Shown: positions 56 through 57,830 of the stretch, piece after piece | How the letters are laid out: the number at the start of each line of letters is the position of its first letter | Position numbering within the stretch: position 1 is the stretch's first letter | Assembly: GCA_964016885.1 (NCBI GenBank) | Contig: OZ024741.1 | Span: 345,464,001 to 345,528,000, forward strand | Origin: Eledone cirrhosa | Taxonomy: Eukaryota | Direction: 5' to 3' | Length of the DNA: 64,000 nucleotides | Translations under genes and position numbers: made by a program | The notes under the pieces: generated by a model | Databases searched by the model: none | What the model was told of the DNA's origin: nothing | What the model saw: only the letters and a program-made list of their open reading frames with translations

Positions 56-149
56 GATCTCAGCAGACGGGCGGGGTAGTTGGCCTTGATAAGCTTCAAC
101 AAAAGCGAAACATGTCATGTCGGCTTATCTCCTCCTGTTTGCTGAGATC
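56..149 (+). ncRNA. Hammerhead-like motif (U3-A8 core variant) inside a long hairpin
   Basis: Core TTGATAA (86-92), stem II GCTT/AAGC, GAAA (107-110), palindromic CATG, TC. Stem I is imperfect. Outer stem GATCTCAGCAGACGG/CCTGTTTGCTGAGATC. Confidence 0.55.
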
Positions 150-6250: not shown

Positions 6251-6323
<73 letters not shown>

Positions 6324-6422
6324 ATAATAATAAAATTGAAGAGTAAAATTCAAAGAGGGCTCGATAAGGATAAATATATATCAAATATATAAGAACCGTA
6401 GAGCAAATATTTATTAAAATAA

Positions 6423-6496
6423 CAGATTAAAGTTTAAGCAAAGAATCGCTGCTTTCACCCTTAACGGGATCTTCTGAAACTAACAAAGTCAATCTG
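6423..6496 (-). ncRNA. Type I hammerhead variant (CAGAAGA core), left arm
   Basis: Reverse complement of 9584-9657. Confidence 0.7.
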
Positions 6497-7322
6497 TAAA
6501 CGCAGAACTGGATATTTCAAAAAACGTTGCAACCGGAGGAAGACAGGAAGACGATACTTTGGTTCGGGGAAACGTTCGCTGGCAAAGAACGGGAAAAAAC
6601 GAATAATACGTCATTAAAAGGAGCGGTGAAAAACAATTACGCGCAAAGACAGAACCACGTTTAGGTATAAAAGAGGTCGTAGACTAATGTTCTCTTAGGT
6701 GGTGCATAGAGACGTTCTCTGGCAATGAACGAAAAAACGAAGATAATAAGTCATATGTGGAGCGTGGAGAACAATAGCACGCAAAGACAAAACCACGTAA
6801 ATGGTATAGCAGAAGTCGTAGACTAAAATTCTAACCAGGAGACCAAATGAATCTACGCTACAGAGTTAAGAACAAAGTAAATAAATACAATACAGAAGTA
6901 ATAAAAATAAATAAATACATACACGCAAACAAATACGTACATACACTAGAATACGCAAAACCTTACCATAGGTATACAACCACGCACATATAAATATGTG
7001 TGTGTGTGTGTATGCTTGTGTTCAAATAAATAAATAATTATATAAACGTATATAAGTAAATAAATACGTATATAACAAGCGCACACACATACCTACATAT
7101 AAATACACGAATGTTCGGAGACGTAAGTCAACTAAAACAAGAAGTACACATACACACACACCCACCATACGTACGAACCTGCATACTCACGCAGACGCAA
7201 AACTCCCGTATACACATAGCCAAACCCTAAATACCAGAATATATAAAAATTATACGCCATAACAATCAAATATACGTACGAGAAGGTATACAACCTTCAC
7301 AAAACATACAGGTAATATATAC

Positions 7323-8140
7323 TTACCTATGCAAATAAGTAAAGGAATAAACAAAACATATACTTAGCTTCCACATCAGGACGTAAAATATCCACGTATA
7401 GATCGTACTATCCGTTAGGGTATAACGTGGGAAAGTTTTGTGCAATTTATGTTTACAAGCCGAAATTGCCTCAGATTTTTTGTTTAAGATGTGGTCTGTG
7501 GCGTAGAGTATTTCCAGAGCCTCAGCGGCGCAGAGGTCACATGGTCTTTTATTTCCGTTATACGATCTAGCCCTAGCTAGGATCTCCCAGTGTAACTTAT
7601 ATTGGGTGTGGTTGTCTTTTAGACTCCAGATATAAGCTGAAAGTGACGTCATATTCCTTCTTAGAGGGTAACGAAAAGAATGGGTATGCATGTAAAGACG
7701 CTGCTTGAAACTATTGGCGGTTAACCCTATGTAGGCCCTACGGGACGTGGATGTTACAACCTTACATTTGTAGACAATGTTACTAGAGAGGCATTTCCCG
7801 GATAGGGGGCAATCAGCCCGATTCCTACAATTACAGTTAGTACTAACTACAGGGTTGCACGTGTTCCTACGGCTAGGTAGTTTAGCTAAATTTGAAGCTG
7901 TGATGTTATGTGCAAGGTTAGGAGTCGTAGAGTAAGAAATTTTAATAGTATTTCTATTAAAAATTTTACTATATTTATGTGTAGGGGGAAAATGCTTCGT
8001 AATAAGGGAAAGAAAGATCTTAGCTAATGGTGTGGGCACCTCCATATTATATGGTGGGTTAAACCAACAAATGCGACGGGATCTATTTCTTCTAGGTCTA
8101 TTTTCGTACTCTGTATATGCTACCTCATCGAAAAATCCAC
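7323..8140 (-). CDS. 5'-truncated PLE ORF: linker plus GIY-YIG endonuclease (Naiad-type)
   Basis: WFNPPY...KIFNRNTIKISYS...CNCRNRADCPLSGKC...IVYKC...YIGLTANSFKQR...H...WEIL...CDLC...LNKKSE...CKH. Confidence 0.9.
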
Positions 8141-8757
8141 TTTCTTACTCTACGACTCCTAACCTTGCACATAACATCACAGCTTCAAATTTAGCTAAAC
8201 TACCTAGCCGTAGGAACACGTGCAACCCTGTAGTTAGTACTAACTGTAATTGTAGGAATCGGGCTGATTGCCCCCTATCCGGGAAATGCCTCTCTAGTAA
8301 CATTGTCTACAAATGTAAGGTTGTAACATCCACGTCCCGTAGGGCCTACATAGGGTTAACCGCCAATAGTTTCAAGCAGCGTCTTTACATGCATACCCAT
8401 TCTTTTCGTTACCCTCTAAGAAGGAATATGACGTCACTTTCAGCTTATATCTGGAGTCTAAAAGACAACCACACCCAATATAAGTTACACTGGGAGATCC
8501 TAGCTAGGACTAGATCGTATAACGGAAATAAAAGACCATGTGACCTCTACACCGCTGAGGCCCTGGAAATACTCTACGCCACAGACCACACCTTAAACAA
8601 AAAATCTGAGGCAATTTCGGCTTGTAAACATAAATTGCACAAAACTTTCCCACGTTATACCATAACGGATAGTACGATCTATACGTGGATATTTTACGTC
8701 CTGATGTGGAAGCTAAGTATATGTTTTGTTTATTCCTTTACTTATTTGCATAGGTAA
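8141..8757 (+). CDS. Inverted copy of the PLE GIY-YIG endonuclease fragment
   Basis: Same protein as 7323-7939 with a few substitutions (e.g. CDLC to CDLY). The N-terminus of track ORF 8032-8757 is antisense read-through of the spacer. Confidence 0.85.
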
Positions 8758-9583
8758 GTATATATTACCTGTATGTTTTGTGAAGGTTGTATACCTTCTC
8801 GTACGTATATTTGATTGTTATGGCGTATAATTTTTATATATTCTGGTATTTAGGGTTTGGCTATGTGTATACGGGAGTTTTGCGTCTGCGTGAGTATGCA
8901 GGTTCGTACGTATGGTGGGTGTGTGTATATGTGTACTTCTTGTTTTAGTTGACTTACGTCTCCGAACATTCGTGTATTTATATGTAGGTATGTGTGTGCG
9001 CTTGTTATATACGTATTTATTTACTTATATACGTTTATATAATTATTTATTTATTTGAACACAAGCATACACACACACACACATATTTATATGTGCGTGG
9101 TTGTATACCTATGGTAAGGTTTTACGTATTCTAGTGTATGTACGTATTTGTTTGCGTGTATGTATTTATTTATTTTTATTACTTCTGTATTGTATTTATT
9201 TACTTTGTTCTTAACTCTGTAGCGGAGATTCATTTGGTCTCCTGGTTAGAATTTTAGTCTACGACTTCTGCTATACCATTTACGTGGTTTTGTCTTTGCG
9301 TGCTATTGTTCTCCACGCTCCACATATGACTTATTATCTTCGTTTTTTCGTTCATTGCCAGAGAACGTCTCTATGCACCACCTAAGAGAACATTAGTCTA
9401 CGACCTCTTTTATACCTAAACGTGGTTCTGTCTTTGCGCGTAATTGTTTTTCACCGTTCCTTTTAATGACGTATTATTCGTTTTTTCCCGTTCTTTGCCA
9501 GCGAACGTTTCCCCGAACCAAAGTATCGTCTTCCTGTCTTCCTCCGGTTGCAACGTTTTTTGAAATATCCAGTTCTGCGTTTA

Positions 9584-9657
9584 CAGATTGACTTTGTTAG
9601 TTTCAGAAGATCCCGTTAAGGGTGAAAGCAGCGATTCTTTGCTTAAACTTTAATCTG
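9584..9657 (+). ncRNA. Type I hammerhead variant (CAGAAGA core), right arm
   Basis: AGTTT-CAGAAGA-TCCC GTTAA GGGT-GAAA-GCA..TGC-TT-AAACT, with stem I extension CAGATT/AATCTG. Confidence 0.7.
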
Positions 9658-9669
9658 TTATTTTAATAA

Positions 9670-13285: not shown

Positions 13286-13320
<35 letters not shown>

Positions 13321-13368
13321 TATAGATAGGTAAATATACACGGGTGTGTATGATTGTGTATAGAAGAT

Positions 13369-13726
13369 TATATTAATAAGAGGAATTTCAACTTTGTCTG
13401 ATTTACTCGTTTTATTTAAAATCCTTTAAAATATATAATGGTATTATAATGAAATAGTATGATAGAATATTAAATTCTAAGTGTTAATTGAACAAGTACT
13501 TTCATGCTTTCGCAATCTTCAGGATTCAACAGTTGAAAATTGCAAACTCGACTGTCACCACATATTATGAACCTGAAGATTGCGAAAGCATGAAAGTACT
13601 TGTTCAATTAACACTTAGAATTTAATATCCTACCATACTATTTCATTATAATACCATTATATATTTTAAAGGATTGTAAATAAAACGAGTAAATCAGACA
13701 AAGTTGGAATTCCTCTTATTAATATA
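13369..13726. mobile_element. Tail-out palindrome (~155-bp arms) carrying a hammerhead, next to (TA)n
   Basis: Arms 13369-13523 and 13572-13726 with a ~48-bp spacer. Confidence 0.85.
13568..13606 (+). ncRNA. Minimal type I hammerhead ribozyme
   Basis: TGAAC-CTGAAGA-T TGC GAAA GCA T-GAAA-GTAC-TT-GTTCA. Confidence 0.88.
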
Positions 13727-14036
<310 letters not shown>

Positions 14037-14196
14037 AGGAGGTTATAGTTCACTTGAAACATTGTGTAATGAGGTATAAACGTTTGAATATGTATAATAA
14101 AGCCAAAACAATGCAGGTATGGACATAGAAAAAAGAATGCAATTGCAAAAGATATTGTTGACAATTCGTCTTTTACCTTAGATTTATTTTAAACGT

Positions 14197-14231
14197 CCTT
14201 AATTTTCGAGATAATATCTCTTCTTCAGAGG
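14197..14231 (-). ncRNA. Minimal type I hammerhead (left arm)
   Basis: Reverse complement of 15831-15865. Confidence 0.78.
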
Positions 14232-14615
14232 GAAATAAAGGTCTCAAACCAGCGTTCTAAATATCTTGCCAAGCCATGCTGCCAGGAAATAGTATAGAGT
14301 ATCTGTTCTATCTCTAATGTCAAAGAGTTAAAATTAGGTGGATAAAGAGTAGTCTCCCTTTAAAAGGGGTTTGTTTAGGTTTTTTTAATTTTTTTTATAT
14401 ACATGCCCGTTTAAGTGTGTGGGAGAATGCATGAAGGTGTAAGTATGTGAATGTGTGTGTGTGTGCGTGTGAGAAGATAAGTCTATTCGTAAATGTGGGG
14501 GATAGGTGTTATCTGGTGTTAGAACTGGTTTTGTGTGTGTATGTGTGAGAGAGAATAAGTGGAGGTGTAAGCGTGTGTGTGTATGGGGTGTGTAAATATG
14601 GGGCTAGAAGCCCTA

Positions 14616-15483
14616 TCAGGTTATAAATTCGGTGTTGAGTTCTAGTCTATTATTGATAGGGGGTTGTGTTTTATCTATAATTAGTGCTTCCTTAATCCTA
14701 AGATTGCCGAGGTTTCTTTCCTTAGTTTCTATCCTAAATGTTATGGTTTTGTCGGTATTTTTGCATTTAACTAGGTGTTTCTTAAATGAGGAAGCGTTAC
14801 TATTGAGGTGTTCTTTTATTCTTATGTGGAGTGGTCTGGTGGTGCTACCTACGTAGAAGTTGTTGCATTTGTCACACTCTAGTCTGTATACGACGTAAGC
14901 CTGGTGGCATAGGTCTGTGTCGTTGATGGGGCAGTTGGCTAGTCTGCAGCAGTTGTCATGTCTGGTGGAGTGTCTTTTGGCTAGCTGTCCGCGCAGAGAA
15001 GGACCTGAGTGGGCCAGTTGGATATCTAGTCCTTCTCGTCTGATGGCTCTGTTGTTGTTTCTTCACTGAAGTGTGGGAGCTTCAGGAAGCAAGTGTTAGT
15101 GCCTCGGGTGTGGTGTCCTCTGTTCTTTCTGGCACGGTTTGTGGTGGATGTCGTTATCCGTTCAGTTTGAGTACTTTCAGAAAATGTGTGGTGTGTGTGT
15201 CTCGGTCTCTAGCGTCGGTGCATTTGTTCCGGATACGTGCCAGTTCGTTCCTTATGTATCCGAACTTGGCACTGAGTGGGAGGGCCGATCCGAAATGTAC
15301 GAACAGGTCCCTGCTGAAGGCTTTTTTATAGAAGCAGGTGTGGATGTTGCCTTCCTCTGTTACCCTGAGTTGGAAGTCCAGTAGGGATAGGGATCCGCGG
15401 TCGTCGGGGTGTTCCATGCTGAACTTTATACTGGCGTCCATGCTGGAGAATGTTGTGTATATTTTATCTGCCTCCTCACGGGA
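14616..15483 (-). pseudogene. PLE RT C-terminus plus GIY-YIG (disrupted)
   Basis: SIKFSMEHP..SLSLLDFQL..FYKK...NGYP-like segment; C..CP....LC..AYVVYRLECDKCNNFYVGSTTRPLHIRIKEH...KEALII...PPIN. Confidence 0.85.
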
Positions 15484-15830
15484 TTTTGTATAGAGGTCCT
15501 TCTATGCTAGAGACGATGGGTCTTATTTAACCAGTTCTAACACCAGATAACACCTATCCCCCACATTTACGAATAGACTTATCTTCTCACACGCACACAC
15601 ACACACACACTCACATACTTACACCTTCATGCATTCTCCCACACACTTAAACAGGCATGTATATAAAAAAAAACAAAAAAACCCTAAACAAATCCCTTTT
15701 AAAGGGAGACTACTCTTTATCCACCTAATTTTAACTCTTTGACATTAGAGATAGAACAGATACTCTATACTATTTCCTGGCAGCATGGCTTGGCAAGATA
15801 TTTAGAACGCTGGTTTGAGACCTTTATTTC

Positions 15831-15865
15831 CCTCTGAAGAAGAGATATTATCTCGAAAATTAAGG
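15831..15865 (+). ncRNA. Minimal type I hammerhead (right arm)
   Basis: CCT-CTGAAGA-A GAGATA T TATCTC-GAAA-AT-TA-AGG. Confidence 0.78.
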
Positions 15866-15991
15866 ACGTTTAAAATAAATCTAAGGTAAAAGACGAATTG
15901 TCAACAATATCTTTTGCAATTGCATTCTTTTTTCTATGTCCATACCTGCATTGTTTTGGCTTTATTATACATATTCAAACGTTTATATATA

Positions 15992-16120
15992 TATATTTTA
16001 TCTGCCTCCTCACGGGATGATGTGAGGATGAGTATGTCATCTACATATCGGGTGAAAAAGGCATGGGAATGGCAGGTGTTGAGGGCTCGGCATTCTAGCT
16101 GGTTCATGTAGGTGATGGCC
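15992..16120 (-). pseudogene. PLE RT catalytic fragment
   Basis: MAITYMNQLE...FFTRYVDDILILTSSREEADKI. Confidence 0.8.
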
Positions 16121-16409
16121 ATCATTATTATCATATTTACACATAATTTTTCTTCTGCTGCTACGCGTCTGTTTCGTTCTTTGTACCTTTACCCTTTCTA
16201 GCAGTCTCTCTCTCTGTTAGCTTCCTCCTCAACTTTCACTCACTCATTCTCTGTCACTACCTCTCCTCCTCCTCTTCCTTCCCGTTTGACCTGTGTGTAA
16301 TTCTTTTCTCGCGCGTTCTTGGTCAAGCCGGTATGAAATTTTTTTCTCTCTCTCTCTTTCGTCTGCGACTTCACAAAACTTATGTTTACCGAATTCGTAG
16401 ACCAGATCC

Positions 16410-16614
16410 CTTCTTCTTCTTCTTCTTCTTCTTCTTCTTCTTCTTCTTCTTCTTCTTCTTCTTCTTCTTCTTCTTCTTCTTCTTCTTCTTCTTCTTCTTC
16501 TTCTTCTTCTTCTTCTTCTTCTTCTTCTTCTTCTTCTTCTTCTTCTTCTTCTTCTTCTTCTTCTTCTTCTTCTTCTTCTTCTTCTTCTTCTTCTTCTTCT
16601 TCTTCTTCTTCTTC
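16410..16614. repeat. (CTT)n microsatellite
   Basis: Direct inspection. Confidence 0.95.
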
Positions 16615-16945
16615 CCGTTAGACTTGTGCGAAATTCCTTCCTTGCTCAGATTTCAACCAGGTTTGATGGTCTTTTGTCTCTTGTTCACGATTTCACCGAG
16701 TTTATATTCATAGAGATCTGGGACTTGTCTATTTCTTCTCACTTTCCGTTGCGTAAACCATTTTGTTTGTTACCCTAACGTCCCCTTTATTTACGTGTTC
16801 CAACGACTTTTTTTAGCCGTTGTTCGCACCAACCTGAGGTATATGGCCCTTAAAGCGATGAAATGCCTGGGACGGTTGGAGGGTCACTGATGAAGGACTT
16901 ACTTTTTCCTATGCACCCCATTTGCAACGCGCAGCCATCATTATT

Positions 16946-16999
<54 letters not shown>

Positions 17000-17111
17000 A
17001 AATGGAATAGAATGAAATGAAATTTCATTTCTCACTCTTAGTACGGCACTTACTTAAATGTAAGTATGTATGTATACGTACATACATATATGCATACAGA
17101 CGTACAGTAGC

Positions 17112-17169
<58 letters not shown>

Positions 17170-17315
17170 GCACACATATATATATGTACGTATCAGTTTA
17201 GCGAACATTTATTATAATGCTCTCTTTGTCCGTTTGTAAACAAACGGACAGCCTGATTTATGCCGTACGGTGTTAAGGCAACCACGTCACCTTTTTGTTC
17301 AACACTGACACAGGA

Positions 17316-17358
17316 ACGATGTACTAGTTTCAAGCTTGTTAGCTATCGTCAGCACCGT
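17316..17358 (-). ncRNA. Minimal type I hammerhead, unit 1
   Basis: ACGGTG-CTGACGA-T AGCT AACA AGCT T-GAAA-CTAG-TA-CATCGT. Confidence 0.9.
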
Positions 17359-17592
17359 ATACCCTTCTGCCAGATGGTTGAACGTTCGAAAGTATATACT
17401 TTCTTTATGAAAATTAATGGCTGAGCAGCCTAATTTGCATATCGAGTGAGTTCAGTCGGCCAGGCGCACCGAAAACGATAAAATGGAATAGAATGAAATG
17501 AAATTTCATTTCTCACTCTTAGTACGGCACTTACTTAAATGTAAGTATGTATGTATACGTACATACATATATGCATACAGACGTACAGTACC

Positions 17593-17627
<35 letters not shown>

Positions 17628-17780
17628 CAGGCACACACATATATATATATGTACGTATCAGTTTAGCGAACATTTATTATAATGCTCGCTTTGTCCGTTT
17701 GTAAACAAACGGACAGCCTGATTTATGCCGTACGTTGTTAAGGCAACCACGTCACCTTTTTGTTCAACACTAACACAGGA

Positions 17781-17823
17781 ACGATGTACTAGTTTCAAGC
17801 TTGTTAGCTATCGTCAGCACCGT
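17781..17823 (-). ncRNA. Minimal type I hammerhead, unit 2
   Basis: Identical motif to unit 1. Confidence 0.9.
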
Positions 17824-18057
17824 ATACCCTTCTGCCAGATGGTTGAACGTTCGAAAGTATATACTTTCTTTATGAAAATTAACGGCTGAGCAGCCTAATT
17901 TGCATATCGAGTGAGTTCAGTCGGCCAGGCGCACCGAAAACGATAAAATGGAATAGAATGAAATGAAATTTCATTTCTCACTCTTAGTACGGCACTTACT
18001 TAAATGTAAGTATGTATGTATACGTACATACATATATGCATACAGACGTACAGTACC

Positions 18058-18144
<87 letters not shown>

Positions 18145-18297
18145 CAGGCACACACATATATATATATGTACGTATCAGTTTAGCGAACATTTACTATAAT
18201 GCTCGCTTTGTCCGTTTGTAAACAAACGGACAGCCTGATTTATGCCGTACGTTGTTAAGGCAACCACGTCATCTTTTTGTTCAACACTAACACAGGA

Positions 18298-18340
18298 ACG
18301 ATGTACTAGTTTCAAGCTTGTTAGCTATCGTCAGCACCGT
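18298..18340 (-). ncRNA. Minimal type I hammerhead, unit 3
   Basis: Identical motif to unit 1. Confidence 0.9.
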
Positions 18341-18574
18341 ATACCCTTCTGCCAGATGGTTGAACGTTCGAAAGTATATACTTTCCTTATGAAAATTAAC
18401 GGCTGAGGAGCCTAATTTGCATATCGAGTGAGTTCAGTCGGCCAGGCGCACCGAAAACGATAAAATGGAATAGAATGAAATGAAATTTCATTTCTCACTC
18501 TTAGTACGGCACTTACTTAAATGTAAGTATGTATGTATACGTACATACATATATGTATACAGACGTACAGTAGC

Positions 18575-18633
<59 letters not shown>

Positions 18634-18726
18634 CAGGCACACATATATATATGTACGTATCAGTTTAGCGAACATTATAATAAATGTTCGCTAAACTGAT
18701 ACGTACATATATATATGTGTGCCTGC

Positions 18727-18780
<54 letters not shown>

Positions 18781-18829
18781 GCTTCTGTACGTCTGTATGC
18801 ATATATGTATGTACGTATACATACATACT

Positions 18830-18888
<59 letters not shown>

Positions 18889-28810: not shown

Positions 28811-29178
28811 TGGGATGGACACACGCGTGAAACTTGCTGAGTAAGTTCTGTTTAAATTTCTATAGGAATTCCTGTCTGTAAACTTTTAATTTTGTACCAT
28901 TTTGTAGAGGGACTGCCAGGTCAAATTTTGATCTGGTCAGTCTCTCAAAATATTCTACACCTTTAGGCGAAATAGTTACACAAAAAGTTTTTTTTTGTTG
29001 AAAAGTTAACATTTTTTTAAATGGCTGAAGCTTCTTCACCAAAATTCGAAGGAGGAAAGGGGAAGATAAGCTTACAGCTTCCCCCTGCCATGCCACTGTC
29101 ACAGTAGCAGAGGTTAAAGACAAAGGTCAGCCAGAGGAAGGATTTTCTCCACCTGCTGACCGACAACTTGACGTTGCC

Positions 29179-30246
29179 ATGGCAACAAACCAAAGAACCA
29201 GCGGCACCAGCAACAAAAACAACAACAATACTACGGACGAAAACAACACCAATAACAATAACAACAACAACAAGACCAATAACTGTGATAACAACAACAC
29301 CACCAACTACAACAGCAACACAAACAAGGAAAAGGTCTCCTTCGCCCAGACGGCAAGGAAAACCCTCGACTATCTGCCAGTAGATATAACCAAAGCGAAG
29401 GAGCTACTGGCAGATGCCAAAAAATATATAGTGTACGGGGAAAATGGTGCATTTTCGATCCACTCCCCCCCGGAACTAAAAAGCCAGAGACTCCTAAACA
29501 CTGTCATGTTTAGGACAATCTCAAATAAAAGCAAAAAACCAGCTCAACCATCATAGAGTGAGATAGAGCTGGTTTTAAAAGACGTCATGAAGGACATCAC
29601 CTTCATTCAGAAGGATAGACTCTACGGGAGTCTATCCATTCTCATGAAGGACAGGGACACAGCAGTGAAACTGTCCATCAAACCAATTACATCCACCGCA
29701 TACACCTTCTACCCTACGTACATGGGTAGAAGGACACAAAAAATAAAAATCCACACCATCCTGCCGATTATGGACATATGGTGGGTTTTGACAGGTTTCC
29801 TGAACCTGGATGATGACACGCTGGTGTCCATGGGAAAGGCATCGGGTGACGCGTTCAGTGGAACGAGCCTCGAACTAGTAGTTCAAATGAGGCCCGAAAG
29901 GATCGCCCAGATCCCTGAACGCGTCATACTGGATGATCAAACTTTCATCAACATTACCGTTGAGGGTAGGCGGCCTTCGTGTTACCTCTGTGGAACCAGA
30001 GGTCACCTGAGGGCTGTCTGTCCCCAACTTAATAAGAAAACCCCAATCCTGCCTACACCACCAACAACTGCACAACCAACACAATCACCACAACCACCAC
30101 TACAAAAACAACAACCACAGCTCAAACCAAAACAAAACAATGTTCAACCCATCCCCCCCCCCCCACTAAAAAAAAACAATTCCCAAAACACCCGCACCGC
30201 AAACACAACCCGAAAATATACCCCTCCCCCCCAAAGCGGAAGATGA
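29179..30246 (+). pseudogene. LINE ORF1 (gag-like, zinc knuckle), with in-frame stop at ~29554
   Basis: VSFAQTAR; ITVEGRRPSCYLCGTRGHLRAVCP; proline-rich tail. Confidence 0.8.
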
Positions 30247-30829
30247 CCCTCGTTCGTCGTCAGACGAGGAGGAGCACTTCCACACAATCAAAAGAAAAAA
30301 AAGAAAACACACCTCAGACACACAAATGAAAACAACCCCTCCCCAAAACATAACACTGACACCAACACAAAAGAGCACACAACAACAGCAAACAAAAAAC
30401 ACCACACAAAAATAAAAACATGCATACACATACATAAACACAAAAAACAAAAAAAACTGTTAAACATTGTGTACAACAACAATTTAATAAAAATCCAAGG
30501 GCCTAACTTCACCCAGGCAGGGGATTTCCCCCACCTCAAAATGATTAAGGCCCCAAAGGACACTTATAAAACTCTAAAAGACAACTTTAAGGAGGACGTG
30601 GGCCCCCCCCTGCGTCGGGCCCATTAACCGCGTCCTCCTAAAAAACTACCCCACCCCCTCTCCAAACACCCACACAACTCCAAACACCCCAACCACACAA
30701 CACACTGATGCCCCTACACTTCCACAAACCACCACCCAACCCAACAACCCATCCCCCACCCTCATGGAAATTGTGCAGCCCGATACCCGGGACGCAGAGA
30801 GGTAAGTGCCTTTTCTCTTCACCACCAAC

Positions 30830-32736
30830 ATGGCTATGCTAAGAGTAGGCTGTTTAAATGCGCGTGGCCTGGGCTCAACTTGGAAGTAAGCAATGCTTCT
30901 AAATGACCTCAGGTCACAACGTATAGATGTGATGGTTATTTGCGAGGCCTGGATCAGCAACGTGCGACAACTGGCCCCCACCTTTGATGACTTTGAGATG
31001 CACGCATCTCTCTGTCAGCCCGGAGGTGGGGGTGGGGTTGTCGTTCTGCTGCAAAAACATCTGGGTCTCGCAACACAGACGGTACATTTGGACCCGGAGG
31101 GTCGACTAGTGGTCCTGGACCTTGGCAGTGGTGAAGGCGGAGCGTTTAGGTTGGTAGCCGCCTACGGCCCTTTCGGGTCAATGCGGCCGGACTTCTTCCA
31201 TCGTCTGGAGACTTTTCTAGGGACGTCCCGCTCCTTGCTATTAGTGGGGGACTGGAATGGTATCCTAGATGCACGCTGGGACTACGTAGGGGCCTGTCCC
31301 GATAGAGAGGGGTGTAATAGCCTCAAAGGGTTAATCGGTCGATTTGACCTGGCCGATAGATATCGACTAGATTTTCCGACTGCGCCAACCTGGACTTGGG
31401 CAAATCGTAGCGAATCATCTAGGTCGTACTTAGATAGGTTCTTAGTTAGAAATAAGGATAAGGACTTTTTAAGTTGTCCAAAAATGAGCATGGTTGGCTA
31501 TTCAGACCACAAGTTAGTGAGCTGCATGGTCAACCTTGACAGAACGCATAGACAGGGACCCGGTTACTGGAAGCTCAACTTGTCCTTACCGGCAAGTAAG
31601 GCTTACAGGAACCGGATTAGCACTTTAGTTAAGGAGCGGTTGACGGGCGCCATCGTCAACAGCAGGTGGTGGGGATCTCTCAAAAGAGAGATTAGAGTAG
31701 TCTCTATAGAATTTAGTAAGGAGTTAGCCTCAAATAGAAATAGGAAGGAAAGGGAGCTGGTAGATAGTGTAGAAGAGGCAATTAGAAGCGGCGACGTGGC
31801 CAGAGTGCTAGCGTCGAGAACGGCCCTGGGCCAGTTCTTCGACGCGAAACACGAAGCCTGCATCGTCCGAAGCAAAATACGTGCTCTGGAAAACGAGGGG
31901 ACCAAAGCTGTTAGCTGTTAGTCCCGTGTGACAGAAGCCAAAAGAGAGAGCAGATCCACTATCCGGTCTTTGCGAGACCAGGATGGACAGGTGATCCTTG
32001 AACCTAAGCAGATCTGGGAGGCTTTTCAAAAGCACTTTGCCGGATTGTTCGGAAGAGGCGGGGAGCCGGTTGGGGATGGGGACTTCGGTCCATACCTCGA
32101 CGGCCTGCCGTGTCTCTCGGACAGGGAGTTGAAGTCCTGCGAGGAGCTGATTTCAGCCGCTGAGATAGAGGACGTGCTAAGCCAATGCGGCAAACGAAAA
32201 TCTCCGGGTGTCGATGGTCTTCCATACGAACTTTATCTAGCTATGTCGGACTTGTTCCCCGATCTCCTCGAGGCGGTCTACTGCAACTGGCAACAGAACG
32301 GGAGAATTCCCTGTGCTGTGACCAAGGGCATAGTCACGCTAGTGAGGAAGGACGAGAACAAGGGGGACGATATAAATAATTTCAGGCCCATAACTCTGCT
32401 AAATACAGAGTTACAGATTTTGGCCAAGGTGCTAGCAAAGAGGTTGGCGCTTGTCGTGGGAAACCTGGTAGGAGATGCGCAGACATGTGCTATCCCGTCC
32501 AGGTCCATCCACGACAACCTCCACCTCATGCGATACATCATAGAGAGGGTTGGGAACGAACCCGGCTTTGGTGGGGCCCTGATCAACTTGGATCAATCTA
32601 AGGCGTTCGATAGGGTCGACCATGGTTACCTGGATGTGGTGCTAGCGGCGGCAGGCTTCGGACCTGTTTTCAGGGGCTCGATCAATGCCATGCAGCCGAA
32701 TCTGCTCTAGGGTCAAGGTGAACGGCTACTTCTCTA
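30830..32736 (+). pseudogene. LINE ORF2: APE endonuclease plus partial reverse transcriptase
   Basis: LRVGCLNARGL, LVGDWN, SYLDRFLV, SDHKLV, GPGYWKLN, KSPGVDGLPYE, FRPITLLN, LDQSKAFDRVDH; stops at ~30887 and ~31919. Confidence 0.92.
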
Positions 32737-32737
32737 C

Positions 32738-33575
32738 TTGCTGTTGAAGGGGGCAAGCTTCAGGATTACGGCAAGAGCACCCTGGAGCAACACTCCACCA
32801 GGGTGCTCTTGCCGTAATCCTGAAGCTTGCCCCCTTCAACAGCAATGCAACACACCAGCTGTAATCTATGAAGCTGTGGTCACTTCCAACCGACCAAACG
32901 AACCACAGGAGGTCAAATCCTGTGTGGGCAAGGCGGAGGGCCGATTCAAGGAGCGTTTCCTGAACCACCAGTCTACCTTCAGATACCCGGACAGACGTTC
33001 ATCCACGAAACTCGCGAGCCATCTATGGTCCCTCAAGGACTCAAGTATAGGCTACTCCATTCAATGGAAAGCCATCACTAAGTCCAAGCCATACGCAAGG
33101 GGAAATCCGACGTGTGGCTTATGTATCGACGAACGAATAGCTATCCTAAAGAGATAACGCAATAGTGATTGCCTAAACAGGAGAAGTGAATTTTTCACAC
33201 GTTGTCCACACGTCACAAAACATCTATTGCATAACTACAAGGCTCCGGACTGATTCTTTGTAATTTAATTTTTAATTTTTTTAAATTTTATTTTCAACCT
33301 AAAAACTTTCCGGACTTTCGCAGTTATCTCCCTTACACCTCCCGCACGCAGTCTAGTATTGCCTGTGTGAAGTGACCGAGTTTCTGCGCATGCGCGTTCG
33401 TACGGTTGTCCTTCCTGTTCCTATAAACATACACATCCCGAACTGAAGATCCGCGAAGGTGAAATAATTGTTCTCGGTATGATGAACTAACTGTTGTGTA
33501 ACCACTTCTACTTAACTCGTCCCTTGGACTGAGTGCTCTACCACTACGGATATTACCTTCCAGTGTTCCACCACT
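32738..33575 (+). mobile_element. Naiad-type PLE 3' fragment (GIY-YIG plus pLTR) with 48-bp 5' fold-back
   Basis: GCSCRNPEACPLQQQC...VIYEA...VGKAEGRFKERFLNH...LWSLKD...W...CGLCIDE...LNRRSE...CPH; palindrome 32738-32845; ends in TATATA. Confidence 0.88.
33434..33484 (+). ncRNA. Degenerate hammerhead in the PLE pLTR
   Basis: CATC-CCGAA-CTGAAGA-TCC GCGAA GGT-GAAA-TAAT-TG-TTC..CGG..GATG; G at the cleavage position; TATAAA about 20 nt upstream. Confidence 0.5.
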
Positions 33576-49174: not shown

Positions 49175-49246
49175 ATAATATCGTATGTATACGTACATAT
49201 ATATATGTATACAGATGTACAGTAGTATGTATATACATACATGCAC

Positions 49247-49282
<36 letters not shown>

Positions 49283-49618
49283 GTATGGGTTTACCGAACA
49301 TTTATTATAATGCTCGGTTTGTTTGTAAACAAACAGCCCGAATTAAGCCGTACAGTGTTCGGCAACCATCGTTGCCCTTTTCTTCAACACTGAGAAAGGA
49401 ATGATGAACTAGTTTCTAGTTTATTAGTTGTCATCAGCACTGTATACCTTCCTGTCAGTCGATTGAACGTTTGGAAGTATATACTTTCCTTATGCATATT
49501 AACGGCTGAGCAGCCTAATTTGCATATCGAGTGAGTTAGTCGGCTGGGTGTTAAGAGTGAGAAATGAAATTTCATTTTTTCCATTTATCGTTTTCGATAC
49601 ACCCGGCCGACTAACTCA
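49175..49618 (-). mobile_element. Diverged dispersed monomer of the 16997-18680 retrozyme-like family, with degenerate hammerhead (49401-49443) and terminal inversion
   Basis: Shared TTTATTATAATGCTC..TGTAAACAAAC..GCTGAGCAGCCTAATTTGCATATCGAGTGAG; minus strand ACAGTG-CTGATGA..GAAA-CTAG-TT-CATCAT. Confidence 0.85.
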
Positions 49619-57149: not shown

Positions 57150-57830
57150 TAATATTAAATTCAAATATTAATAAAATAGATGTTCTTGTGATCAATTAAA
57201 TTTTATTATACATATTCCAGAGGTACGTGAATCAGGTTCAACAGTACGTCCTCATCAGATAAAATAAAATGATACATGACATACCCTGAGATGTTAGATG
57301 GTTAAGATTTAATCAGGTTCAACAGTACGTCCTCATCAGATAAAATAAAATGATACATGACATACCCTGAGATGTTAGATGGTTAAGATTTAATCAGGTT
57401 CAACAGTACATCCTCATCAGATAAAATAAAATGATACATGACATACCCTGAGATGTTAGATGGTTAAGATTTAATCAGGTTCAACAGTACGTCCTCATCA
57501 GATAAAATAAAATGATACATGACATACCCTGAGATGTTAGATGGTTAAGATTTAATCAAGGTAGTGATTAAATCTTAACCATCTAACATCTCAGGGTATG
57601 TCATGTATCATTTTATTTTATCTGATGAGGACGTACTGTTGAACCTGATTTACGTACCTCTGAAATATGTATCATAAAATTTAATTGATCACAAGAACAT
57701 CTATTTTATTAATATTTGAATTTAATATTATATTAATAACTCTGGAAAATATTTTTACAGTAGAGTGCTTCCAATCTACTGTAAAACTCATTCTTTGATA
57801 TACTCATTGAATCTTATTTAACTCTTTAAT
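57150..57830. mobile_element. Tail-out palindrome with hammerheads; left arm carries a 4 x 81-bp tandem
   Basis: Units at 57230, 57311, 57392 and 57473; apex ~57560; the right arm has a single unit. Confidence 0.88.
57615..57680 (+). ncRNA. Type I hammerhead ribozyme
   Basis: ATTTTAT-CTGATGA-GGACGTA..TACGTACC..-GAAA-TATGTA-TC-ATAAAAT; the mirror copy 57200-57265 has GAAA changed to GGAA. Confidence 0.8.

Follow-up and report, generated by a model that had tools for sequence, protein, structure and literature searches.

A tandem hammerhead array in Eledone cirrhosa with the sequence features of a probable PLE-mobilised non-LTR retrozyme

Introduction

Metazoan non-LTR retrozymes, described in coral, Mytilus and axolotl, are tandem non-coding units, each some hundreds of base pairs long, with a canonical type I hammerhead, a GC content below 50%, a self-paired predicted circle and thousands of copies; their expression and circles have been demonstrated, RtcB ligation has been shown for retrozymes, and the axolotl retrozymes cleave better as dimers (PMC7229834). 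Vertebrate retrozymes were described as pLTR derivatives of PLEs that are dispersed as monomers, dimers and multimers, with the long arrays clustered (10.64898/2026.07.22.740005). Earlier arguments for the mobilisation of retrozymes by PLEs drew on ribozymes common to both, on co-occurrence and on homology to pLTRs (PMC7229834; 10.64898/2026.07.22.740005). PLE insertions contain an inverted truncated copy and a tail at a single end (10.1101/2021.04.23.441226), and this one-sided tail has been traced to two adjacent internal reverse transcriptase (RT) start sites (PMC11167929). Among hammerhead repeats with promoters of their own, newt satellite 2 has an snRNA-type Pol II promoter, and schistosome Sm-alpha has a Pol III promoter by which one unit drives the next (both as cited in PMC2220036 and PMC6765202).

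Here we report the analysis of a tandem hammerhead array in a window of 64,000 nucleotides, this being the whole stretch of DNA that was analysed. The array and its family share with the metazoan retrozymes the short non-coding tandem units, the canonical type I hammerhead, the low GC content, the self-paired predicted circle and the high copy number. Its units of 420-520 bp exceed the ~170-400 nt reported for metazoan retrozymes, and its internal (TA)n, (TA)n targeting, two fixed 3' ends, one-sided tail, 5' inversions and U6-like motif are not described in the available text of PMC7229834, supplement aside. With PLEs and their non-autonomous derivatives, the array shares partial tandems, an inverted 5'-truncated arm, a one-sided tail, two adjacent internal RT start sites, as predicted from its ends, and AT-rich or (TA)n targets, but it lacks their ORF, has a canonical and not a minimal hammerhead, and has a tail of ~60 nt versus 30-40 (10.1101/2021.04.23.441226; PMC11167929). 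The same class of helper was proposed for the vertebrate retrozymes, for which the case was made from co-occurrence and pLTR homology, whereas the case made here comes from the footprint of insertion ends, no parent pLTR having been found among the PLE copies in the window (10.64898/2026.07.22.740005).

The retrozyme class itself is already known, one mollusc included. What goes beyond the first-pass annotation of the window is an inverted arm, two fixed 3' ends with a one-sided tail, a U6-like motif and near-identical sister arrays. Neither an insertion-end analysis nor a U6-type promoter was found in the available text of PMC7229834 or 10.64898/2026.07.22.740005, supplements aside. A literature search on retrozymes or hammerheads in connection with octopus, cephalopod, Penelope or Pol III likewise gave no account of the family or of a U6-type promoter in a retrozyme, although supplements may list related repeats, and it found no paper on a mollusc U6 promoter.

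Results

Anatomy of the array

The first-pass annotation reported a tandem array of units without ORFs, and this was confirmed: 3.5 copies lie head to tail, with anchors at 17000, 17481, 17946 and 18463 and spacings of 481, 465 and 517 (Table 1). Over the part that is free of TA repeats, identity among the three complete units is 97.8-100% (8 variable sites in 341), and the units differ in length because the internal (TA)n, which forms the loop of a long hairpin in the predicted fold, varies in length. The longest ATG ORF in the TA-free part encodes 54 aa on the plus strand and 31 aa on the minus strand, in agreement with the claim that the units are non-coding; longer frames in the array are YIYI runs derived from (TA)n. 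Unit GC content is 0.33-0.36. No LTR, PBS and PPT arrangement is present in the unit (PBS and PPT judged by eye, on the unit sequence), and no tRNA-derived region was detected in it.

The annotated interval, 16997..18680, encloses a real array but stops at the inversion junction, beyond which the insertion runs on as an inverted arm to 18833; the end of this arm is duplicated up to 18941. The long 3' end site (~16999) has a T4 run and adjoins (TA)n. Both insertion ends lie inside (TA)n, where target-site duplications of more than 4 bp cannot be delimited. The host genome is 3.0 Gb and AT-rich.

A diverged copy elsewhere in the window had been taken as evidence that the family is dispersed and not a local satellite. 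This copy is present, at 82% identity, and belongs to a separate subfamily, B, an assignment for which 40 of 2,795 candidates were scored, at 95-100%. Its hammerhead has decayed, with a GUU triplet and with C·A as the base of helix II, and 49552-49618 is inverted at the 5' end of the copy. The family is indeed dispersed, yet it also forms a satellite of at least 30 kb on contig C14, described below.

Table 1. Coordinates of the array, its ribozymes and promoter-like motifs, and the older copy in the window
Feature	Position	Strand	Remarks
Direct arm, 3.5 units head to tail; ribozyme sense is minus	16997..18683	-	sequence comparison
Tail, ~60 nt, from short 3' end site (~17059) to long 3' end site (~16999)	16999..17058	-	
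(TA)n target at long 3' end	16949..16999	.	
Internal (TA)n, variable length	17115..17166; also 17596-17623, 18061-18140, 18578-18629	.	
Hammerhead 1	17305..17372	-	core from 17352; predicted cut 17322/17321
Hammerhead 2	17770..17837	-	predicted cut 17787/17786
Hammerhead 3	18287..18354	-	predicted cut 18304/18303
TATA box	17392..17399; also 17857-17864, 18374-18381	-	host-gene comparison
Octamer-containing 13-mer	17429..17441; also 17894-17906, 18411-18423	-	matches upstream element of host U6, U6atac, RNase MRP and tRNA-Sec
Inverted 5'-truncated arm, ending at short 3' site without tail, in (TA)n	18667..18833	+	
Older copy, subfamily B, same promoter motif	49175..49618	-	

Structure and predicted cleavage of the hammerhead

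Each complete unit carries, as had been annotated, an identical type I hammerhead on the minus strand, in which CUGACGA...GAAA-CUAG-UA lies at 17352, 17817 and 18334. The monomer lengths of 465 and 517 nt follow from the spacing of the predicted cuts, for which 17322, 17787 and 18304 are the last bases before cleavage. In the predicted fold, helix I has 6 bp and continues, past a UAU/U internal loop, into an outer helix; helix II has 4 bp (AGCU-AACA-AGCU), with a U·U at its base in place of the usual G-C; and helix III (A-CUAG-U) has 1-2 bp with a palindromic loop. A minimal PLE hammerhead has a helix I of 4-5 bp, a helix II of 7-8 bp and no helix III loop (PMC4209133). By this definition the hammerhead of the array is of the canonical metazoan type, with a conserved structure, and the earlier term 'minimal' was wrong. 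The term 'intact' calls for a caveat at the base of helix II, where the U·U of subfamilies A, C and D, or the C·A of subfamily B, predicts slow cleavage. Among the axolotl hammerheads, HHR_Amex1 has a like helix III, with 1 bp and a palindromic tetraloop, and HHR_Amex2 has a U·U in the same place in helix II (PMC7229834). That 8/9 Xenopus dimers were uncleaved in vitro (10.64898/2026.07.22.740005) counts against cleavage of the array RNA.

Folding energies favored the double-hammerhead folding of neighbouring units that had been proposed. A natural two-unit stretch reached -191.8 kcal/mol as a double hammerhead, only 2 above its free minimum of -193.8 kcal/mol, whereas two single hammerheads reached -178.8 kcal/mol, 15 above the minimum. 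For a single unit, the active fold differs from the minimum-energy fold, and the free consensus of RNAalifold did not recover the hammerhead fold. An Infernal search with Rfam, which had been suggested as a check, gave no hammerhead at the array, either locally at E<=10 or among the whole-window matches listed; Rfam matches to miRNA families in the array were (TA)n artefacts. The predicted circles are 66-74% paired, with z values of -9.6 to -10.9, and -6.7 for the TA-free part.

Copy number, a sister family and selection on the ribozyme

A 31-nt degenerate hammerhead pattern had 25,571 exact matches in the genome and its reversed control had 0, indicating that the motif is not due to chance. 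A second pattern, which excluded the helix II of the array, gave 5,681 genomic matches versus 5 and 7 for its controls. Among its first 100 matches, 96 belonged to a sister family, E, with units of 465-468 bp, a G-C-closed helix II and ~5,500 matches. A pattern covering both families had 0 matches in metagenome contigs, and a loose-end motif had 0 matches in the genome. Of four sets of contigs compared with the array, three repeated only the subfamily variants and nothing aligned from the fourth. At 55 loci on contig C1, we found one intact ribozyme in 34, two in 11 and three to eight in 10. A further locus, on contig C14 (G000:C14:25412000-25442000, L031-L033), is an unbroken retrozyme satellite of at least 30 kb with a nine-unit higher-order repeat of ~4.7 kb.

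Preferential conservation of the ribozyme core, the lack of which had been named as grounds for refutation, was evident when the array's subfamily, A, was compared with family E: the core was identical at 11/11 positions, versus 231/341 (68%) overall, and 6/15 helix pairs had changed on both sides, as counted in an 8-row alignment with representatives picked by hand. Across subfamilies, pair 3 of helix I was paired in 61/63 rows, as U·G (29), G·U (22), A-U (8) or C-G (2), and unpaired in two. Among 58 distinct copies, two pairs were altered on both sides and 96% of helix cells pair, a figure that counts related copies and not independent events. The compensatory changes in helices I and II and the invariant core across two families indicate, at the level of sequence, that the ribozyme is under selection.

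Insertion ends and their PLE-type footprint

We surveyed insertion ends at the 55 loci that carry the first 100 pattern matches on contig C1, chosen by position. A class could be given to 73 outward ends: 35 mapped to a long site (16997-17000 in the window) and 38 to a short one that lies ~60 nt upstream; three loci were left unclassed. (TA)n was present within 60 nt of 68/73 ends, a loose test in an AT-rich genome. Two ends were available at 21 loci; two of these were convergent separate insertions and were dropped, and 18/19 of the rest had one long and one short end, with none having two long ends. In family E, for which the end set comprised 23 loci (13 from the pattern search and 10 picked for arrays or two arms), 13/13 two-ended loci were of the long plus short type. 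Thus, the tail is on one arm only in 31/32 inverted insertions, and the window array, with its long end at 16997 and its short end at 18833, fits the same rule. These PLE-type ends with a one-sided tail support the earlier suggestion that the retrozyme borrows a PLE reverse transcriptase.

Three PLE-type elements in the window have the same one-sided tail in (TA)n, of 42, 52 and 87 nt, and one of them encodes RT remnants and a GIY-YIG domain. A comparison of the retrozyme ends with the pLTR and 3' end of the PLE copies in the window found no shared sequence. No pile-up of 5' ends at the cleavage site was seen; 1/102 copies breaks there, which argues for a circle or an uncleaved multimer as the template and against a cut linear monomer. 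We also considered whether the array is the pLTR of the adjacent PLE, which was ruled out by its separate hammerhead, its separate ends and the lack of similarity, or an autonomous PLE with an ORF for RT and GIY-YIG, which was rejected because this ORF is absent from the unit and the broken PLE next to it, across (TA)n, is an insertion of its own.

In family E, the units within arrays of 20 and of 22 are near-identical and have private changes common to both arms, as expected if one template had been copied repeatedly, local duplication being also possible. The window's own three units have no common private change and their differences are mosaic; thus, an origin from a single template is not shown for the window array. 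One of the E arrays, two-armed and of 20 units (L200-L201; G000:C1:30829000-30843000), has three clustered A>G changes on the sense strand in 19-20/20 units, and these break the octamer of the promoter-like motif described below. Locus-private changes in family E have a weak bias (A>G 11 versus T>C 2; shared-private, 4 versus 0). An A-to-I signature in subfamilies A-D was rejected, as counts of 13 versus 2 fell to 6 versus 2 distinct changes and 2 versus 2 private changes once shared descent was removed, which leaves RNA editing only as a lead. The A>G cluster in the E array is possibly the frozen RNA editing of one template.

A U6-like promoter motif upstream of each ribozyme

Each unit contains TATGCAAATTAGG and then a TATA box, GTATATAC, upstream of the ribozyme. 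Because TATA is at -30 in host genes, transcription is predicted to start at ~17368, where helix I has its base on the 5' side. Among 20 host U6 loci examined, those with an intact upstream region are of three distinct promoter types, in each of which the element occupies -76 to -78 and TATA lies at -30; two loci (L077, L078) are without the element at that place and one (L070) has an insertion between the elements. The RNase MRP gene and the best of six U6atac matches also carry the element, which is present in neither the four U2 loci nor the RNase P RNA gene. In a promoter matrix built from five host genes, the composite score of the unit was 26.6 bits, versus background maxima of 20.0 (127,848 positions) and 18.9 (328,800 flank bases). 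The motif was also present, at -79, in two tRNA-Sec genes that had been held out. The array motif thus matches a host U6/U6atac/MRP/tRNA-Sec element plus TATA and not U2 promoters, and a tRNA-like region was not detected, which sets it apart from the newt and schistosome repeats.

The spacing from motif to TATA is 42 in 51/51 records, whereas the distance from TATA to the ribozyme core varies (46, 38 or 47). The octamer is intact in 20/21 covered E loci, with a spacing of 41, and the promoter block of A and E is identical at 41/50 positions versus 190/291 elsewhere. While the upstream element and TATA agree with those of seven host promoters, the spacing of 41-42 is 4-6 bp closer than the 46-48 of 7/7 host genes; in addition, 15/51 records differ at a base that is invariant in the seven host genes, and family E has CATATAA in place of TATA. 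The motif pairs with a downstream spacer in the predicted fold, so that an RNA hairpin could account for its conservation. T5-T8 runs directly precede the long end at 25/37 loci and would halt Pol III ahead of the second ribozyme; T4-T8 is found at the unit end at 30/37. The T4-free body of the unit was rejected as support for Pol III, as 64-89% of shuffles are also T4-free.

On this sequence comparison, we give the U6-like motif a somewhat better than even chance of being a functional promoter. The motif itself points to Pol III, while the shorter spacing and the T-tracts mean that Pol II or read-through is possible. At the snRNA genes of flies and plants, the spacing of the elements contributes to which polymerase is used, and hence the array could be transcribed by Pol II or in a leaky mode.

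The survey of host genes gave a type-3 element, TATG(C/G)(A/T)AAT(T/G)AG, at -76 to -79 with TATA at ~-30 (L064-L066, L096, L097, L158, L159). Contig C19 holds a 1.8-kb tandem array of U6 genes, and contig C3 a 2.2-kb array of U2 genes. The RNase P RNA gene (L163, upstream of 1500) is without the U6-type element and has a ATCAGTGG motif like that of the U2 promoters (L084-L087), hinting at a U2-type (Pol II) promoter.

Neighbouring elements in the window

The broken PLE that adjoins the array (14035-16945, minus strand) has a YVDD-type RT piece at 16000-16120, an RT C-terminal piece, a zinc-finger linker and GIY-YIG (Pfam PF01541), with its own minimal hammerhead at 14228, a (CTT)68 tract inside and an inverted arm at 15529-15987 that is without the 42-nt tail. 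Two other PLE-type inverted insertions lie in (TA)n. The one at 13288-13720 has a one-sided tail of 52 nt and a minimal hammerhead in both arms, and the one at 6321-9666 has a one-sided tail of 87 nt and an endonuclease frame, which we take to be Neptune-like. Close copies of this frame are found beside 5/55 retrozyme loci.

At window 67-144 (plus strand), a weak Rfam match to Hammerhead_HH9 (31 bits, E 0.0008, under the gathering score) coincides with a stable hairpin (z -5) whose hammerhead-like core reads CUUGAUAA; it may represent another repeat's ribozyme, in a decayed or variant form. Window 33443-33490 (plus strand) and loci L023, L053, L115 and L139 carry other hammerhead families, which probably derive from PLEs, and the genome appears rich in hammerhead families. 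The window also contains a broken LINE-like element at 29029-33157 (plus strand; AP endonuclease PF03372, RT PF00078) that runs into a PLE-like endonuclease fragment, an 81-bp tandem repeat at 57230-57601 that ends in a perfect inverted repeat of ~45 bp, and a long palindrome at 2716-2816.

Discussion

The array family has the sequence features that mark a non-LTR retrozyme: short non-coding tandem units, one canonical type I hammerhead per unit, no LTR, PBS and PPT arrangement, GC below 50%, many dispersed copies and a strongly self-paired predicted circle. The retrozyme reading put forward by the first-pass annotation fits the covariation around an invariant core, the energy of the double fold, the self-paired predicted circles and the PLE-type ends, and we consider it probable that the array is a PLE-mobilised non-LTR retrozyme with U6-like transcription, double-hammerhead cleavage, circles and PLE insertion into (TA)n. 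Transcription would start at the U6-like motif of the upstream unit, just before each ribozyme, and read-through to the second ribozyme would give multimeric RNA. The folding model suggests that this multimer would self-cleave as a double hammerhead into monomers, which would probably circularise, with ligation by host RtcB by analogy with PMC7229834. Starting at two internal sites, a (TA)n-targeting PLE would reverse-transcribe the retrozyme RNA into nicked (TA)n, one time for each arm, and rolling-circle copying would produce from 1 to 20 or more rounds of the unit per arm. Because the promoter lies upstream of the start and would be lost from a linear transcript in each round, the tandem or circular form would restore it. 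A more elaborate version is tentative, and we hold it to be somewhat doubtful: the retrozyme captured a host U6-type promoter and kept it on its own circle, rolling-circle copying by the PLE RT, begun at two internal sites, gives two-armed arrays of up to 20 or more identical units per event, the shifted spacing may change the choice of polymerase and so allow read-through, and one array appears to have frozen, in all its units, three A-to-I edits of its single template.

If the template were instead an uncleaved multimeric read-through RNA, the array would be a non-autonomous PLE derivative that keeps its hammerhead, with circles that are rare or not the template and with growth by template jumping or local duplication. 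Precedent comes from an Anolis PLE that inserted in vitro without hammerhead cleavage, unprocessed RNA being the main substrate (PMC11167929). This explanation also agrees with the weak closure of helix II, with the mosaic in which the window's units differ, and with the higher-order satellite on contig C14, a sign that amplification at the DNA level occurs. Linear read-through should, however, cost at least one unit per generation, yet near-identical two-armed arrays of 20-22 units exist; the strong self-pairing of the predicted circles and the compensatory changes also speak against this explanation, as do the circles present in 3/3 animals examined in PMC7229834. We regard it as unlikely.

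Considerably less probable still is a Pol III SINE-like gene whose short linear RNA extends from the U6-type promoter as far as the T-tract and has its 5' end trimmed by the ribozyme, and which spreads only as a by-product of rare read-through, as in schistosome Sm-alpha, a precedent summarised in PMC6765202. Promoter, ribozyme, body and T-tract do follow one another as in a transcription unit, and T-tracts are frequent at the unit end. However, insertions include the promoter and sequence past the T-tract and their starts are not at the cut site, no tRNA-derived region was found, and the absence of T4 from the body is not significant. Such a short linear RNA as the bulk RNA product is compatible with the retrozyme explanation. 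Finally, the long satellite arrays on contig C14, the many palindromes and the lack of an Rfam match are what a DNA-level satellite or a DNA transposon with an incidental hammerhead-like motif would give, but copies are polarised, with fixed 3' ends and variable 5' ends with inversions, and neither the one-sided tail at 31/32 loci nor covariation around an invariant core suits such an origin. On sequence grounds we consider this last explanation largely refuted and give it very little credence.

The available text of PMC7229834 and 10.64898/2026.07.22.740005 leaves open both the transcription of animal retrozymes and the enzyme that inserts them. The array family makes both testable: from its ends, two exact positions can be predicted at which a PLE RT would start, and from its upstream motif a transcription start site together with promoter elements that lend themselves to mutation. 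The host U6-type promoter element is now defined, for use in guide RNA expression. If the more elaborate version with a captured promoter is true, the end footprint would be evidence, read directly from the genome, that animal retrozymes are moved by PLE machinery. The two families together have more than 30,000 ribozyme copies, part of them in arrays of near-identical units, and would be recently active and possibly a major source of small circular RNA in this genome.
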